A stretch of DNA of 64,000 nt, from contig CAZIUK010000001.1 in assembly GCA_964542785.1 (NCBI GenBank), forward strand, positions 261,115 to 325,114. The letters are read 5' to 3'. Under the pieces are notes generated by a model. The model saw only the letters and a program-made list of their open reading frames with translations, ran no database searches and was not told where the DNA came from. Positions 1,520-53,528 of this stretch are shown in pieces. The DNA is from an uncultured Planctomycetales bacterium. Its GTDB lineage: Bacteria > Omnitrophota > Gorgyraeia > Gygaellales > Profunditerraquicolaceae. A program made the position numbers and the translations under genes. The stretch's first letter is position 1. Each line of letters begins with the position of its first letter.

Positions 1520-3634
1520 ATGTTTGGTTTTGATTTGTTGATTTTAGCTCCTGTAGGCTCAATAGCAGCGCTTATGTTTGCTGCGTATCTTGCTATGTTT
1601 ATAATGAGAAAGAGCGAAGGAACAGATAGGATGAAAGAGATTGCCTTGGCAGTGCGCATAGGGGCTAATGCTTATCTAAAAAGACAGTATCTAGGTGTTT
1701 CGATATTTTTTGCAATAGTATTTTTTCTTCTTTTAGTATTGGCATTTAAAAATTATCTTGTTATATTTGTACCTTTTGCGTTTTTAACCGGAGGGTTGTT
1801 TTCAGGGCTCTCCGGATTTATCGGTATGACTATAGCCACGCAGGCCTCTAACCGCACTGCAGCAGCAGCACAGGAGAGCTTAAACTCAGGGCTTAGAGTT
1901 GCTTTTTCAAGCGGAGCTGTTATGGGGTTAACCGTAGTAGGCCTTGGGCTTTTGGACTTAAGTATCTGGTATTATTTTTTAAACTGGTATTATTCTCATA
2001 ACCCCACACCTTTGGGGATAGATAAGATTACCGCAATAACTTCAACTATGCTTTGTTTTGGCATGGGCGCAAGCTCACAGGCACTCTTTGCAAGGGTTGG
2101 GGGAGGAATCTTTACTAAGGCAGCGGATGTAGGGGCAGATCTTGTAGGAAAGGTAGAGGCAGGCATCCCGGAGGATGACCCAAGAAACCCTGCTGTGATT
2201 GCCGATAATGTAGGGGATAATGTCGGCGATGTCGCGGGGATGGGAGCTGATCTTTATGAATCCTATGTAGGCTCAATAGTAGCTACCTCAGCTTTAGGTG
2301 TTTCTGCTGGGTTTGGGGTTGCGGGGGTAACCGTCCCTTTAGTAATGGCAGCTGTGGGTGTTATCGCCTCAATCATCGGAACCTTTTTTGTAAAGAGTAA
2401 GGAAGATGCTTCGCAAAAAGCATTATTAGCTGCTTTAAGAAAAGGCGTATTTATAAGCGCATTCTTGGTTGCGGCAATAGCATACTTTTTAGTAACAGGG
2501 GTTTTAGGGCAGAAGTATATGGGAGTCTATTGGGCGATTATTTCAGGTTTGGTTGCTGGGGTTATTATCGGCTTAGTTACAGAATTTTATACCTCAAGCG
2601 GGTTTAAGCCTACTCAGTCAATAGCTGATTCTTCTCTTACCGGACCGGCGACTGTTATTATAAGCGGACTTGCCGTGGGGATGATGTCAACTGCTATTCC
2701 TGTAATTATTGTAGGAGTAGCAATATTAGCCAGTTTTTTATTAGCTGGAGGAAGAATCCACGACCCCTCAACTTTTAGCGCAGGGCTTTACGGCGTGGCT
2801 ATCTCAGCAGTGGGGATGCTTTCTACTTTGGGGATTACCTTAGCTACTGATGCTTATGGCCCGGTAGCGGATAATGCCGGAGGGAACGCTGAGATGTCTC
2901 ATCTTTCGCCTGAGGTAAGAAAAAGGACTGATGCCTTGGATTCTTTAGGAAATACTACGGCGGCAACAGGCAAGGGTTTTGCAATAGGATCAGCTGCCTT
3001 GACTGCCTTAGCTTTAATTGCCGCATTTAAAGACCAGATTGCTATGCTTGGCAAGGAGATGTCTTTAAGCATTATGAATCCTAGCGTATTAGTCGGATTA
3101 TTTTTAGGCGCTATGCTTCCGTTTTTATTTTGTGCTATGACTATGCGCGCAGTAGGAAGAGCTGCAGGTAAAATTGTAGTTGAGGTGCGTAGGCAGTTTA
3201 AGGAGATAGTTGGTTTGATGGAAGGGAAGACCAAGCCGGATTATGCCCGTTGTGTAAGCATAGCTACCGGGGCTGCACAAAAAGAGATGATTATGCCTTC
3301 TCTTTTGGCGATTATTGCGCCTATTTTAACCGGTATATTAATCGGAGTTGAAGGCCAGGCAGGCCTGCTTATGGGCGCTTTGGCTTCGGGGTTTGTTTTA
3401 GCAGTAATGATGGCAAATTCTGGCGGAGCCTGGGATAATGCCAAGAAATACATAGAAGAAGGGCATCACGGAGGCAAGGGTTCAAATGCGCACAAGGCAG
3501 GAGTTGTCGGAGATACAGTAGGGGACCCTTTTAAAGATACTTCGGGCCCAAGTTTAAATGTTTTGATTAAACTTATGTCTATGGTCTCTATTGTTTTTGC
3601 TTCGTTTATTTTAAAAAATTCCCTATTTAAATAA
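1520..3634 (+). CDS. hppA: membrane-bound proton/sodium-translocating pyrophosphatase
   Basis: 704 aa polytopic protein with [41 protein letters not shown], the hallmark of V-type H+-PPases. Shine-Dalgarno AAAGGAGG upstream. Confidence 0.92.
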
Positions 3635-3646
3635 TCTTTACTCTTT

Positions 3647-3687
3647 AGGGACACTTAGTCTGTTAATCGATAGGGTGTCCCTTTTTC
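3647..3687 (+). terminator. rho-independent terminator after hppA
   Basis: Stem agggacac/gtgtccct (8 bp) followed by TTTTT. Confidence 0.6.
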
Positions 3688-3753
3688 AGGTTGTCGAGGA
3701 TAATGATATTTGTTAAGTCATATTTAAAATAAGTATTATTTGTTAAATAATAC

Positions 3754-48871: not shown

Positions 48872-50257
48872 ATGCATAAAATATACTTAGCGTCAAAATC
48901 TAAGGCAAGGGCAGATATACTGAAGCGCTTGGGGTTTAAGTTTAAGGTTATGCCTAGTAAGGTTAAAGAGAAGAGAGTGTTAGGCAGGCTCACTTTCTCT
49001 AAACTGGTTAAAGAGAACGCCCTTAAAAAAGCGCTGGATGTTGCGGGAAGGATTAAATCCGGGGTGGTTATATCTGCCGATACTATCTGTGTCCAGGATG
49101 GTAATATATTTGGCAAGCCGAAAAATATAAAAAGTGCTAAAGTTATGCTTAAGAAACTTTCAAAAAAAGCCCAATGGCTTTATTCAGGGGTAGCTATTGT
49201 AGATAAGGATAAAACAAAAAAGAGAATTTTAACCGGGAGCGAAAAGACAAAAGTTTACATGGATAATTTAAGCGACAAAGATATAGATAGATACTTTAAA
49301 AAAACTTCTCCCTTGGATAAGGCGGGAAGTTTTGATATACAAGGCAGAGGTGGATTTTTTATTCGTCGTATAGAAGGGTGTTTTTATAATGTGGTGGGCC
49401 TGCCTGCGCGCAAACTATTTATAATGTTAAGAAAACTTGGTATTAACAAGAAGTTTCTCTTTTTTATCTTATATACTACATACTGTATACTACATATTAT
49501 AACATTAACGGGTTGCTCCCATGAGTATAATATCGTAACCGGTAAGCAGGAGGCTTTTTATTATAGTACGGATAAGGAAGTTGTTATGGGCCAGTCTATA
49601 GCTAAGCAGATGGAGAAAATTTATAAAGATAAAGATACCGTTGACCCTTTGATGCAAAAACGAGTGGAGGATATAGGTAAAAGAATAGCTGCGGTAAGCG
49701 ATAGAAAAGATATAGATTATTATTTTACCGTCCTTGAAGATGAAGAGATAAACGCCTTTGCGCTTCCGGGCGGCTACATCTATGTTAATAGCGGCTTGGT
49801 TGAAAAGGTTGAAAATGACGATGAATTAGCCTGTGTTTTAGCGCATGAGGTAGGCCATATCGTAGCAAGGCATAGCATAAAGAAGCTTCAGGCATTACAG
49901 GCGTATTCTGTTTTAAGGTTACTTGTTGCCGCGGCGCCTTCCTCAGGTGAAGTTGGCGCAGCTTCTGATGCGGCGTTTACCGAGATACTTTTAGGTTATG
50001 GCAGGGAAGATGAGCTTTTAGCAGACCAGTTAGGAGCGCGCTACGCAAGGTTAGCCGGGTATGACCCTTATGCAATGATTACTTTTTTAAAGAAACTGCA
50101 AGATGTAAATAAAAGAAGGCCCCTTGCGCCTAAGTCTTATTTTAAAACTCATCCTTATGCCCCGGATAGAATTAGGGTAGTTAAAGAAGAGATGGGAGAA
50201 AGGATATCTTTTAGTGATTACATTAATATTGAACAGTTGCCGCATAAAACATATTAA
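48872..50257 (+). CDS. maf: in-frame fusion: Maf-like nucleotide pyrophosphatase (N-terminus) + lipoprotein-type M48 metalloprotease (C-terminus)
   Basis: Residues 1-~188 are Maf (LASKSKARADIL...DKAGSFDIQG...VVGLPA). Residues 185-215 MLRKLGINKKFLFFILYTTYCILHIITLTGC form a lipoprotein signal with an L-T-G-C lipobox. An M48 HExxH site (HEVGHIVARH) follows. No stop between the domains. Confidence 0.7.
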   Translation: MHKIYLASKSKARADILKRLGFKFKVMPSKVKEKRVLGRLTFSKLVKENALKKALDVAGRIKSGVVISADTICVQDGNIFGKPKNIKSAKVMLKKLSKKAQWLYSGVAIVDKDKTKKRILTGSEKTKVYMDNLSDKDIDRYFKKTSPLDKAGSFDIQGRGGFFIRRIEGCFYNVVGLPARKLFIMLRKLGINKKFLFFILYTTYCILHIITLTGCSHEYNIVTGKQEAFYYSTDKEVVMGQSIAKQMEKIYKDKDTVDPLMQKRVEDIGKRIAAVSDRKDIDYYFTVLEDEEINAFALPGGYIYVNSGLVEKVENDDELACVLAHEVGHIVARHSIKKLQALQAYSVLRLLVAAAPSSGEVGAASDAAFTEILLGYGREDELLADQLGARYARLAGYDPYAMITFLKKLQDVNKRRPLAPKSYFKTHPYAPDRIRVVKEEMGERISFSDYINIEQLPHKTY

Positions 50258-51338
50258 AAGGACGTTTTCTTTTTTAATTCTATTTATCTTTTTGTTTATT
50301 AGCCCTGCTATCTCTAAAAATTATCCGGAGGATAAGAATATGAATAATCCTTTTGGGGTGCTTGAGTTTTTGCATTGGAATCACGATTGGAATCACTACA
50401 AGTATTCTTCTGACCTTGAGCTTGAAAGGACAGCTAAGCTTATGAAAGAAGCAGGAGTTGGCTGGGCAAGGGTAGACTTTTTATGGCAGGATATAGAGCC
50501 AAAGGAAGGGGTATTTGATTTTGCTAAATATGACCGCATTGTAGATATTTTTTCTGCTAATAATATAAATATTTTAGGGCTTCTTAATTATAGCGCGGAT
50601 TGGGCAGCATTTGACGGCGGTTGGAATTCTCCTCCTAAGGATAATAAACTATTTGTTGCGTATGCTTCTAAAGTTATTAAACGCTACAAGGATAAGGTTA
50701 AATATTGGGAGGTATGGAATGAACCGGATTCTCCTATCTATTGGTCAGTTCAAGATGGGCTTAAGAGTTATGTCTCTTTATTAAAGGATGTTTATTTGGC
50801 AGCCAAAAAAATTGACCCGGATTGTAAGGTACTTAATGGAGGGTTAGCTAAAGGAATATCCAGTATAAACTGCTTATACGATAAGGGGGCAAAGGGATAT
50901 TTTGATATTCTAAATCTGCATTTTTTTGAAAACCCGTTGCGCAAAGGAGGTATAAAGGCTGTTGTCTCTTTTCCTAAGCTTGCCTATAAGATAATGTTTC
51001 GTAACGGAGATTGCAATAAGAAGATTTGGATTACTGAGATTGGTTGCCCCGGAGTAAGGAGAGGGTTGATGGTTAATAAATGGTGGTTAGGGAAGAACCC
51101 GACGGAGAAACAACAGGCACTTTGGCTAAAAAGGGTATATACAGAACTACTTAAGGATGAAAATGTAGAAAAGGTCTTTTGGGCTTTTTTTCGCGATACC
51201 AAAGAACATTGGGACAATGGAGTTGATTATTTTGGACTTATCCGTTGGAACTACTCTAAGAAGTCTGCCTTTAAGGCTTACCAAGATAGTTTTAATATTT
51301 GGAAGAAGAAAACTTTTGGTGCGGGAGGAGGGACTTGA
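50214..51338 (+). CDS. secreted clan GH-A glycoside hydrolase (GH5/GH39-like)
   Basis: Signal peptide; WEVWNEPD (N-E-P acid/base motif) and a TIM-barrel pattern. Start overlaps the upstream ORF, so the true start is uncertain. The last ~20 nt overlap tRNA-Leu. Confidence 0.5.
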   Translation: MITLILNSCRIKHIKRTFSFLILFIFLFISPAISKNYPEDKNMNNPFGVLEFLHWNHDWNHYKYSSDLELERTAKLMKEAGVGWARVDFLWQDIEPKEGVFDFAKYDRIVDIFSANNINILGLLNYSADWAAFDGGWNSPPKDNKLFVAYASKVIKRYKDKVKYWEVWNEPDSPIYWSVQDGLKSYVSLLKDVYLAAKKIDPDCKVLNGGLAKGISSINCLYDKGAKGYFDILNLHFFENPLRKGGIKAVVSFPKLAYKIMFRNGDCNKKIWITEIGCPGVRRGLMVNKWWLGKNPTEKQQALWLKRVYTELLKDENVEKVFWAFFRDTKEHWDNGVDYFGLIRWNYSKKSAFKAYQDSFNIWKKKTFGAGGGT

Positions 51339-51399
51339 ACCCTCATGCCTTGCGGCACAGGCTTCTGAGACCTGCGCGTCTGCCATTCCGCCACCCCCG
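51317..51399 (-). tRNA. tRNA-Leu (anticodon CAG)
   Basis: Reverse complement folds as GCGGGGG acceptor, anticodon loop CUCAGAA, long variable arm, T-arm GAGGGTTCAAGTCCCTC, encoded CCA. Confidence 0.85.
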
Positions 51400-51561
51400 C
51401 TAAAGTTGTTTTAAGTATATCTTAGGCAATAAATTCTGTCAAATATAAAAGATTTGCCGCCCTTTTAATTTACTGCTATAATAATAAATTCCGGAAAGCT
51501 TGAAAATGGCTATAGTTAAGAACGCTTTTTTGATTTCGTATTTTAATTAGTTTATGATAAA

Positions 51562-52017
51562 ATGAGCAAGATTATTGCCTCAAATCATAAAGCTTATAGG
51601 GACTATTTAATTCTTGAGACTATTGAATGCGGGATAGAATTAAAGGGCTCAGAGGTAAAGTCTATTCGCCAGGGAAAGATAAACTTAAGCGATAGCTTTG
51701 CTAGGATAGAAGGAAGCTCGGTAACCTTATACAATACACACGTAAGCCCTTACCTCCAGGCAAGTTATCTTAATGTTGATCCGGTAAGAGAACGCAAACT
51801 CCTCTTGCATAAGAAACAGATAGTAAAGTTAGCCGGCAAGCTTACGCAAAGAGGCTGTACACTTGTTCCGTTAAAGGTATATTTTAATGCCCGTGGTTTT
51901 GTAAAGATAGAACTTGGCCTTGGCCGAGGGAAAAAACTTTATGATAAAAGAGAAGATATTAAGCGTCGCGAGAGCGAGGTAGTTACTCGTCGCATCTTAA
52001 AGAATAGAAGGAAGTAA
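51562..52017 (+). CDS. smpB: SsrA-binding protein
   Basis: Characteristic SmpB sequence; immediately upstream of tmRNA. Confidence 0.92.
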
Positions 52018-52040
52018 TCTTATTTAGAAAGGAAAAATAA

Positions 52041-52437
52041 GGGGGTGAAAGGGCTCGACTTAGGCAGTTGAGTAAGAGTAGCATGCCGCGGACGCATGGT
52101 TAGCCGCGTTAACAACCCGTGCAAAATACAAACGCAAACAACCGTTTGTTTGATGTCAAGCCGATGGCTATGCCATCGTTTGGCATGATGCCAGCCTTCG
52201 CTAACTAAATTAGCGAAGCCTCTATCCGTTCCTATTCCTACAGGGCGGAATAGAGCATTAGTAGGATAGTTTTGCTGTTTATCCTTTGACGGCAGAATGA
52301 AACTATAAAAAGGATACGGCTTATAATGCCCCGCCTTGCAGAGCGTTATAAGCCTAAAGATAAATGCAGGGCTAAGCATGTAGTGGCTTTTATTCGGGTG
52401 TTTAAGGACCGGGGTTCGATTCCCCGCACCTCCACCA
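52041..52437 (+). ncRNA. ssrA: tmRNA (transfer-messenger RNA)
   Basis: 5' end GGGGGUGAAAGGGCUCGAC and 3' end GGACCGGGGUUCGAUUCCCCGCACCUCCACCA form the tRNA-like domain. Directly downstream of smpB. Confidence 0.85.
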
Positions 52438-52445
52438 TTAAATTT

Positions 52446-53528
52446 ATGCAAAAGAATGCAAAACTATTTTTATTCTTTGTATTAGGGATTTTTATCTTTG
52501 GTTGCGCTAGGTTGCCGCTTAAGGAAGAGTTACCCGTATATAATATAAATGGAGCAGGGTATTATTCCCTTCTCTCTTTGTGTCAATTAAAAGGTATGAG
52601 TTTAGATTATGATATCTACGCTCGCCTTGTTAATCTTAGTAAAGATAACCATAGCATAAGTTTTGTCGTTGGAGATAATTTAGTTTTAGTGGATAAAAAA
52701 GCGCTTCTGCTTAAAAATCCTACTGAGATATACGAAGGAAAGATTATGGTTCCTGTGCAATTTAAGGAAGAGGTTATAGCGCCTATCTTTAAGGTTGTTA
52801 AATTGCCTCTTGGTTCTAAGCAAACAAGGGTAATACCTTTAATTAAAAAGGTTGTTATAGACCCTGGGCACGGAGGCCGTGATCCCGGAGCAGTTAGTCG
52901 GAGTGGGTTAAAAGAGAAGGATGTAAATCTTGATATAGCTAAAAACTTAGCCGATTTTTTTAGGAGAGAAGGCATTGAAGTTGTAATGACGCGTAATTCA
53001 GATATTTTTATCCCGTTAGGGAAAAGAGTTGAAATAGCAAATAATTCTAAAGCAGATTTATTTATAAGTATTCACGCCAATGCTAATAAGTCAAGGAGCC
53101 TGCATGGTTTTGAGGTTTATTATGTTTCTACTACAGTAAGCGATCTTACTAGGGGCTCTTATGCTGCTAAGCATTTTAATCTTAACCTTGATAGTTCCTA
53201 CTTTGCCAGTAATTCGCAAGTCTTGAAATCAATACTTTGGGATAAGCTCTATACTTATAATCGGGCAGAGTCTATCTCTTTAGCGTCGGATATCTGTCGT
53301 TCTGCAGGAGAGAGTTTAAGTGTAAGGGTTATAGGCGTAAAAGATGCGCGTTTTGAGGTCTTACGTGGAACTAGGATGCCTGCAGTTTTGGTAGAAGTAG
53401 GTTTTTTATCCAACGCTAAAGAAGAACAGCTTTTAAGAGACTCAAGTTATCGTAAGAAACTCTCCCAGAGTATTTTTAAAGGGGTGTTCGACTATGCCTG
53501 TAAAACTAAAGAGGGTTTTGGTAGATGA
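52446..53528 (+). CDS. N-acetylmuramoyl-L-alanine amidase (Amidase_3, AmiC-like lipoprotein)
   Basis: VIDPGHGGRDPGA and ISIHANA motifs. N-terminal signal with Cys (IFIFGCARL). Start moved to Met 41 so the CDS does not overlap the tmRNA. Confidence 0.8.
   Translation: MQKNAKLFLFFVLGIFIFGCARLPLKEELPVYNINGAGYYSLLSLCQLKGMSLDYDIYARLVNLSKDNHSISFVVGDNLVLVDKKALLLKNPTEIYEGKIMVPVQFKEEVIAPIFKVVKLPLGSKQTRVIPLIKKVVIDPGHGGRDPGAVSRSGLKEKDVNLDIAKNLADFFRREGIEVVMTRNSDIFIPLGKRVEIANNSKADLFISIHANANKSRSLHGFEVYYVSTTVSDLTRGSYAAKHFNLNLDSSYFASNSQVLKSILWDKLYTYNRAESISLASDICRSAGESLSVRVIGVKDARFEVLRGTRMPAVLVEVGFLSNAKEEQLLRDSSYRKKLSQSIFKGVFDYACKTKEGFGR

Follow-up and report, generated by a model that had tools for sequence, protein, structure and literature searches.

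This study examined a protein-coding gene in a 64,000-nucleotide stretch of DNA from an uncultured bacterium of the phylum Omnitrophota, deposited under the name Planctomycetales bacterium (assembly GCA_964542785.1, contig CAZIUK010000001.1, positions 261,115 to 325,114 of the forward strand). The whole stretch is termed the window, and positions are counted from its first letter. The gene occupies 48872..50257 on the + strand, as do all of its features given below, and consists of a single uninterrupted open reading frame (ORF) of 461 codons (461 aa plus stop). Its first part encodes a Maf nucleotide pyrophosphatase domain (aa 1-192, 48872..49447), which is complete, lacks an N-terminal signal and is predicted to be cytoplasmic; its second part encodes an M48 zinc metalloprotease domain (aa 260-440, 49649..50191), which is predicted to be periplasmic. 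The elements of a lipoprotein signal peptide lie between the two. The end of the Maf C-terminal helix, RKLGINKK (aa 187-194, 49430..49453), also forms the n-region of the signal; the h-region, FLFFILYTTYCILHIIT (aa 195-211, 49454..49504), is the sole membrane-competent segment of the protein; and the lipobox L-T-G-C (aa 212-215, 49505..49516) ends in C215 (TGC, 49514-49516), the predicted diacylglyceryl-modified +1 residue at a signal peptidase II site. The conserved start of the mature protease, SHEYNIVTGKQE (aa 216-227, 49517..49552), follows directly, with E218, Y219, N220, T223 and E227 invariant. An earlier note on this DNA had described the uninterrupted frame, the complete Maf domain, the lipoprotein signal in mid-protein and the intact M48 domain with HEVGH and a downstream Glu, and our analysis confirmed each of these descriptions. 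The note had also judged the arrangement topologically contradictory and offered three explanations, namely internal initiation at an in-frame ATG within the last Maf helix (M185, 49424..49426), a recent stop-codon loss and a sequencing artefact.

The Maf domain was examined using profile and structure comparisons. Pfam Maf (PF02545) covered aa 3-188 with profile positions 1-186/187 (175.2 bits, cut-off 27; E 1.5e-51), the score of 156.9 bits against TIGR00172 exceeded the curated Maf family threshold of 117.15, and NCBIfam PRK00078 carried the match on to aa 192. Residues 5-187 of Bacillus subtilis Maf (1ex2, 189 aa) were aligned to aa 4-191 of the fusion protein. The extents of these matches indicate that the Maf module is complete and ends where a free-standing Maf ends. 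Among 86 family members, R13, E33, K53, D70, K82 and Q157 were invariant and S8 and S10 nearly so; we take these to be the S-x-S-x-x-R, E, K, D, K and Q positions with catalytic roles in Maf enzymes. The full-length profile match and the conserved active-site residues place the domain, by its sequence, within the Maf family. The resemblance to Maf, YhdE and YceF (1ex2; Escherichia coli YhdE, 4p0e) therefore extends over the full length and includes active-site positions that are invariant in the fusion family; however, those enzymes are free cytoplasmic proteins of ~190 aa, whereas the C-terminal helix of the Maf examined here continues straight into a membrane segment. The motif also differs, in that aa 8-13 (48893-48910) read S-K-S-K-A-R where Maf usually has S-x-S-P-R-R, so that the SPRR typical of Maf, YhdE and YceF is replaced by SKAR. 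Ala12 was invariant in the 86 members, and the corresponding residue of B. subtilis Maf is Arg. This replacement may reflect a changed nucleotide preference in this Maf lineage. Human ASMTL, in which Maf is fused to a methyltransferase (2p5x), provides a precedent for Maf as an N-terminal fusion module; nevertheless, both ASMTL domains are cytoplasmic and have neither a membrane segment nor a signal between them, whereas the protein examined here has both.

The protease half matched Pfam Peptidase_M48 (PF01435) over aa 260-440 with 126.2 bits (cut-off 20.3; E 1.8e-36), and the nearest solved structure was 3c37, an M48 peptidase (E 6.5e-34). The zinc-binding and catalytic motif HEVGH spans aa 325-329 (49844..49858), with H325, E326 and H329 invariant in the family. 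Farther downstream, E381 of the E-L-L-A-D motif (50012..50014) is presumably the third zinc ligand, as judged from general knowledge of M48 peptidases; D380, E381, L382, L383, A384 and D385 are all invariant. The profile match, the HExxH motif and the downstream Glu together assign the protein to the M48 family at the sequence level. The scores did not reach the equivalog cut-offs for LoiP (NF052399; 64.6 vs 365) or BepA (NF052400; 117.8 vs 570), no tetratricopeptide repeat domain was found, and the protein terminates ~20 aa past the M48 domain. The closest resemblance is to short stand-alone M48 lipoproteins of the LoiP/YcaL type (3c37, homologues P0122-P0130 and loci L013 and L014), which have in common with the fusion the protease domain, the HExxH and downstream E-x-x-x-A-D motifs, the mature N-terminus and the lipobox Cys. 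These proteins differ in carrying the signal at the N-terminus of a chain of 250-270 aa, whereas the fusion has a full 192-aa Maf ahead of it.

To determine how widely the fusion occurs, we searched 5.8 billion proteins. The search scored 8000 candidates and yielded 2170 matches at E <= 1e-10, of which 120 were listed. All 120 listed homologues were fusions of 441-469 aa that contained both Pfam domains and covered 98-100% of the query at 64-92% identity. The named homologues among those listed came almost entirely from Candidatus Omnitrophota metagenome-assembled genomes (MAGs) generated by many independent projects. Several carry the NCBI name 'Maf and M48 domain-containing protein', and the fusion architecture is thus already visible in public annotation. 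An exact-sequence lookup returned no record for the protein of the window, and the closest among the matches listed was P0001 (92% identity). The fused loci that we retrieved, L001-L012, ranged in identity from 64% down to 41%, and L003-L012 were from species-representative genomes. An exhaustive HMMER search with aa 185-461, clustered at 50%, reduced the close fusion family to one representative (P0121) and recovered the divergent full fusion P0166 and the truncated fusions P0131 and P0132. A hidden Markov model (HMM) of Maf only, run over all 82 fetched loci, detected Maf in the 12 fused loci, as well as in two others with maf directly upstream of a separate M48 gene; no Maf was found within the flanks of the 68 other M48 loci, which were mostly from Proteobacteria or Acidobacteriota. 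Matches to the Maf region (query residues 97-169) in several proteobacterial loci were rejected as spurious alignment extensions, as they were negative with the Maf-only HMM. The gene order in L001 and L002 was that of the window, with a phosphoribosyltransferase gene and an HI0933-like flavoprotein gene, then the Maf-M48 gene, then smpB and Amidase_3; L001 also has the glycosidase-like gene that follows the Maf-M48 gene in the window. Taken together, the comparative data identify the Maf-M48 fusion as a genuine gene with ancient conservation across the phylum Omnitrophota. The source records of P0073, P0107, L012 and L015 name Margulisiibacteriota, Methanoperedens or Planctomycetia, although the sequences fall inside the Omnitrophota family; these labels probably result from mis-binning or mislabelling of MAGs.

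In the two loci with a separate maf, the genes are close neighbors. The maf gene of L016 encodes 196 aa (ending in MLRKVGVFIL and a stop) and is followed by an M48 ORF in another frame, and that of L017 encodes 191 aa, with a 292-aa M48 gene starting 31 nt later. In crude neighbor-joining trees of both domains, which carry no support values, L016 and L017 nested among the fused loci L008, L010 and L011. This position suggests that the split forms arose by secondary fission and do not represent an ancestral split state. Their existence also shows that Maf and M48 are able to function as separate chains, which fits a precursor that is normally cut. The junctions of both loci are rich in repeats. 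In the L017 junction (3590-3750), a 26-nt unit recurs at positions 3670 and 3709 with 92% identity, within the region that codes for the new signal, and complementary sequence was noted by eye at ~3594-3630; in the L016 junction (3575-3700), TTTAACGCGAAT occurs three times. Repeat DNA encodes part of the new signal peptides of the separated M48 genes.

We further analyzed the junction between the two domains in the query and the 120 listed homologues (121 members). The results revealed that Gly214 and Cys215 were invariant (121/121), that position -3 was L, I, V, F or M in all members but one (120/121), and that E218, Y219, N220 and T223 were likewise unchanged throughout. The uncharged run preceding the Cys varied freely in sequence, contained many indels and ranged from 10 to 24 residues, and the net charge over the 12 residues upstream was +1 to +6. 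The invariance of Gly-Cys amid a freely varying hydrophobic stretch indicates, at the level of the alignment, that the lipobox is more than a chance match. At +2, the members had S, A or T, apart from one with Y, and Asp did not occur; the protein of the window has Ser. Divergent fusions followed the same plan, with the junction of L007 reading LLKKIGVSIFSLCICLAIFGC followed by ATEFN, that of L010 MLAKFGVSILSVLLVVTAGGC followed by TSEFN, and that of P0166 ILIILLVLCLGC followed by VEFN. From M185 onward, the sequence fits the standard lipoprotein-signal pattern, which was matched only twice among all in-frame starts of the ORFs in the window. The lipobox also conforms to the consensus [LVI][ASTVI][GAS]C given in PMC12462473. 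The lipobox, h-region and basic n-region are therefore those of a predicted signal peptidase II substrate. The signal is nevertheless not at the N-terminus, as its Cys is residue 215 and not one of the first ~15-40 residues; translation would have to begin at M185, a residue that is not conserved, to place it there.

To investigate whether this internal lipobox corresponds to that of ordinary lipoproteins, we compared the fusion with related proteases that lack Maf. The nearest stand-alone relatives exhibited 41-53% identity, were ~250-270 aa long and carried canonical N-terminal lipoprotein signals, in which the Cys was followed by xTEYN[LI][AV]TG, as in the fusion. The signal of P0122, for example, is MQRLFILVALGFFLCGC followed by ATEYNLATG, and that of P0130 is LALSGC followed by TTEYNLATKQEE. 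The Cys was in the same register before xTEYN in P0122, P0125, P0130, L013 and L014, of which L013 and L014 are also from Omnitrophota. The shared register marks C215 as the homologue of the lipid-modified +1 Cys of ordinary lipoproteins. Other relatives (L018, P0145, P0160 and P0163) have a signal-peptidase-I-type signal and keep the motif, whereas the Cys is absent. One of these, L018 (2920-3825), is an Omnitrophota protein with the signal …IFASNANA followed by VEFDTSEGKED, without a lipobox and without maf upstream. The existence of this type implies that the protease family occurs in Omnitrophota as a fused lipoprotein, a stand-alone lipoprotein and a soluble periplasmic form. Because the signal-peptidase-I-type relatives drop the Cys and keep the motif, the conservation of C215 goes with the lipobox rather than with the fold of the protease. 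The same observation led us to reject a cysteine-switch or structural role for this residue.

The topology of the fusion protein was then predicted. The best 15-residue hydropathy window was aa 196-210, with nothing comparable elsewhere in the protein, and the net charge was +6 on the N-terminal flank and -1 on the C-terminal flank (-4 to 0 in the family). AlphaFold2, run on the family alignment, returned two confident domains, with a Maf C-terminal helix at 179-189 and a separate helix at 193-210 that packed against neither domain; residues 203-229 were of low confidence, and the predicted template modelling score was 0.50. The premise of the earlier note that the architecture is topologically contradictory did not stand, since the lone hydrophobic segment, with positive charge on its N-terminal side and negative charge on its C-terminal side, predicts an N-in/C-out protein with Maf inside and M48 outside. 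This arrangement is an ordinary one; proteins of the ToxR, CadC and RodZ type are N-in/C-out with a large cytoplasmic N-terminal domain. The orthologues thus form a conserved single polypeptide with a predicted N-in topology, the outcome that the earlier note had named as counting against its view. The hydrophobic run, lipobox included, had a median length of 19 residues in the fused proteins (P0001-P0120) vs 14 in the stand-alone relatives (P0122-P0270), a difference of ~5 residues (Mann-Whitney p = 5.5e-13, uncorrected for phylogeny). The longer h-region may be an adaptation that aids the targeting of a signal emerging late from the ribosome.

On the basis of these findings, we favor, with somewhat more confidence than doubt, a model in which the gene encodes a single N-in/C-out precursor that is lipidated at C215 and probably cut by signal peptidase II. 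The comparisons show that the fusion is conserved, that its catalytic motifs are intact, that it has a single positive-inside segment and that its invariant lipobox is homologous to N-terminal signals, and from this we infer export, lipidation and cleavage. In the model, the full-length precursor would be translated with its lipoprotein signal internal rather than N-terminal, and Maf (aa 1-192) would fold in the cytoplasm. The basic Maf C-terminal helix would serve as the n-region while segment 195-211 inserts into the inner membrane and Sec exports the downstream part. Lgt would diacylglycerylate Cys215, and LspA, the signal peptidase II, would most probably cut G214/C215, yielding a lipid-anchored periplasmic M48 of the short LoiP/YcaL-like type. 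The mature protease would be sorted like its stand-alone relatives. The +2 residue of the fusion is Ser and not Asp, which under the E. coli sorting rule would point to the outer membrane. Maf would either stay attached to the membrane through a C-terminal tail formed by the spent signal peptide or be freed after degradation of the signal.

Several observations weigh against this model. No Lgt or LspA motifs were found by a motif search within the 64-kb window. The increase in the median h-region length of the fused proteins is a drift toward a stable signal-anchor, and many members may stay uncleaved. To our knowledge, no natural lipoprotein precursor with a folded domain of ~190 aa ahead of its signal has been documented, and our literature search, which had partial coverage and in which absence is not proof, retrieved no paper that deals with the Maf-M48 fusion or with internal lipoboxes in natural proteins. 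In E. coli, engineered internal signal sequences reportedly remained competent for export and processing (Talmadge, Brosius and Gilbert, Nature 1981), which indicates in principle that a signal can function away from the extreme N-terminus. Those signals share an internal position with that of the fusion; however, they were artificial, followed a short extension and depended on signal peptidase I, whereas the signal of the fusion is natural, has a folded enzyme upstream and is of the signal peptidase II type. We know of no comparable case in which a folded enzyme precedes a signal of the latter type.

The rival that survives best is an uncleaved bitopic protein, in which the hydrophobic segment is a permanent type II signal-anchor and the topology resembles that of ToxR or RodZ. 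We consider this possible but unlikely. In this reading, both enzymes would be active within a single polypeptide at the inner membrane, Maf on its cytoplasmic side and M48 on its periplasmic side, and the lipobox would be a relic or be lipidated without cleavage. The single hydrophobic segment with its positive-inside bias is what this alternative predicts, the greater length of the fused segments lies in the direction expected of an anchor, and the persistence of the fusion over deep divergence is easy to explain if physical linkage mattered. ToxR, CadC and RodZ likewise combine a cytoplasmic domain, one hydrophobic segment and an exported C-terminal domain; nevertheless, they have a stable uncleaved anchor and no lipobox, whereas the fusion has an invariant lipobox and a segment that can be as short as 10-13 residues. 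An anchor that spans the bilayer needs ~18-20 residues or more; the median run is 19, but uncharged runs of only 10-13 residues, lipobox included, were found in 10 of the 121 fused members, and such runs are too short for a stable transmembrane helix. A relic, moreover, would not hold Gly-Cys invariant in every member and in all of the divergent fusions, and the halves persist as separate genes in L016 and L017. LspA is established to cleave diacylglyceryl-modified lipoboxes, and the absence of Asp at +2 from all members matches lipoproteins released from the inner membrane according to the E. coli rule. The short runs, the invariant Gly-Cys and the +2 pattern together favor a functional lipoprotein signal.

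The second rival, internal initiation at ATG 49424, would produce a conventional prolipoprotein from M185 while the full-length product supplies Maf. It has in its favor a textbook lipoprotein signal from M185 onward, and Met185 is present in 101 of the 121 members and in several divergent fusions. The residue is nevertheless I (15 members), L (4) or V (1) in the others, and 16 members lack any Met within 37 residues of the Cys. Codon 185 is ATT in L001 and L002. In L002, the GLPL motif contains a TTG, which is the only candidate start, and in L003 and L007 the stretch from the Maf GLP motif to the hydrophobic core is free of in-frame ATG, GTG and TTG codons. L016 and L017 also keep the Met, although maf is separate there and M48 has its own start, so the residue behaves as part of the Maf helix. 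The earlier note had correctly remarked that no Shine-Dalgarno (SD) sequence precedes ATG 49424, yet this is uninformative, as the ORF's own start at 48872 also lacks one. An SD core was found at 38% of the starts in the window vs 17% of internal ATGs; because only 38% of the starts have one, its absence is no obstacle to internal initiation, and the SD argument cuts neither way. A promoter and terminator scan revealed no site upstream of 49424 and no enrichment (6 sites vs 4.6 +/- 2.1). The family, as aligned, does not have the conserved internal start codon that marks in-frame two-product genes. The phage Rz/Rz1 spanins, in which a lipoprotein gene is embedded in another gene (PMC6139136), resemble the fusion in having a lipoprotein signal inside a longer ORF; however, Rz1 is read in a different frame and has its own start, whereas the signal of the fusion is in frame and some members have no possible start codon. 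Internal initiation thus does not hold as a general mechanism, and we consider it quite doubtful that it is a significant route. It is at best an accessory route in some members and cannot be the export mechanism of the family. The idea of two products from one frame may survive through post-translational cleavage at the lipobox, not through a second start.

The remaining rival takes the fusion as an artefact of assembly or sequencing, or as two neighboring genes recently joined by loss of a stop codon, and the comparative data refute it. Although maf and M48 adjoin as separate genes in two relatives and fusion by stop loss would be mechanistically easy, the identical in-frame junction occurs in many independent assemblies, in 120/120 listed homologues and in species-representative Omnitrophota genomes down to ~41% identity, and the split forms, with their repeat-rich, rearranged junctions, nest inside the fused clade as expected of secondary fission.

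Several features surround the gene in the window. The only other lipoprotein-type signal found there belongs to the Amidase_3 gene (52446-53528, +) and is a classical N-terminal one (MQKNAKLFLFFVLGIFIFGC), the Cys of which is kept in the syntenic orthologues of L001 (LINGC) and L002 (LISGC). This lipobox offers indirect support for the use of lipoboxes in this lineage. The smpB gene (51562..52017, 151 aa) is immediately followed by a transfer-messenger RNA (tmRNA) gene (52041-52437, +) with the tag peptide ANNRLFDVKPMAMPSFGMMPAFAN, and long spurious ORFs overlap the tmRNA gene, namely 52020..52451 (-) and the start of 52326..53528. A tRNA-Leu(CAG) gene (51317-51400, -) overlaps the last 22 nt of the listed glycosidase-like ORF 50214..51338. 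As listed, that ORF begins at a GTG (50214) and so overlaps the Maf-M48 gene at its end; its real start appears to be the ATG at 50340, which has ggagga in front of it.

Lipoprotein signal peptides are treated as strictly N-terminal in textbooks and prediction tools. In the family described here, a whole lineage has, over deep divergence, kept an invariant lipobox whose Cys is residue 215 and which follows a complete cytoplasmic enzyme. We regard it as an evenly balanced question whether Omnitrophota make a natural two-compartment polyprotein in which Maf acts as a giant n-region and an internal lipobox >200 residues in is processed by Lgt and signal peptidase II. If the protein is not processed, it would simply be a bitopic two-enzyme membrane protein of an ordinary kind. 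If it is processed, signal peptidase II would be a polyprotein-splitting enzyme, and Sec, Lgt and LspA would tolerate a large folded N-terminal passenger. The lipoprotein pathway would then need no N-terminal signal, and predictors that consider only the N-terminus would miss a class of substrates. For these very small-celled bacteria, the fusion gives 1:1 co-production of a cytoplasmic enzyme linked to house-cleaning or division and an envelope quality-control protease.

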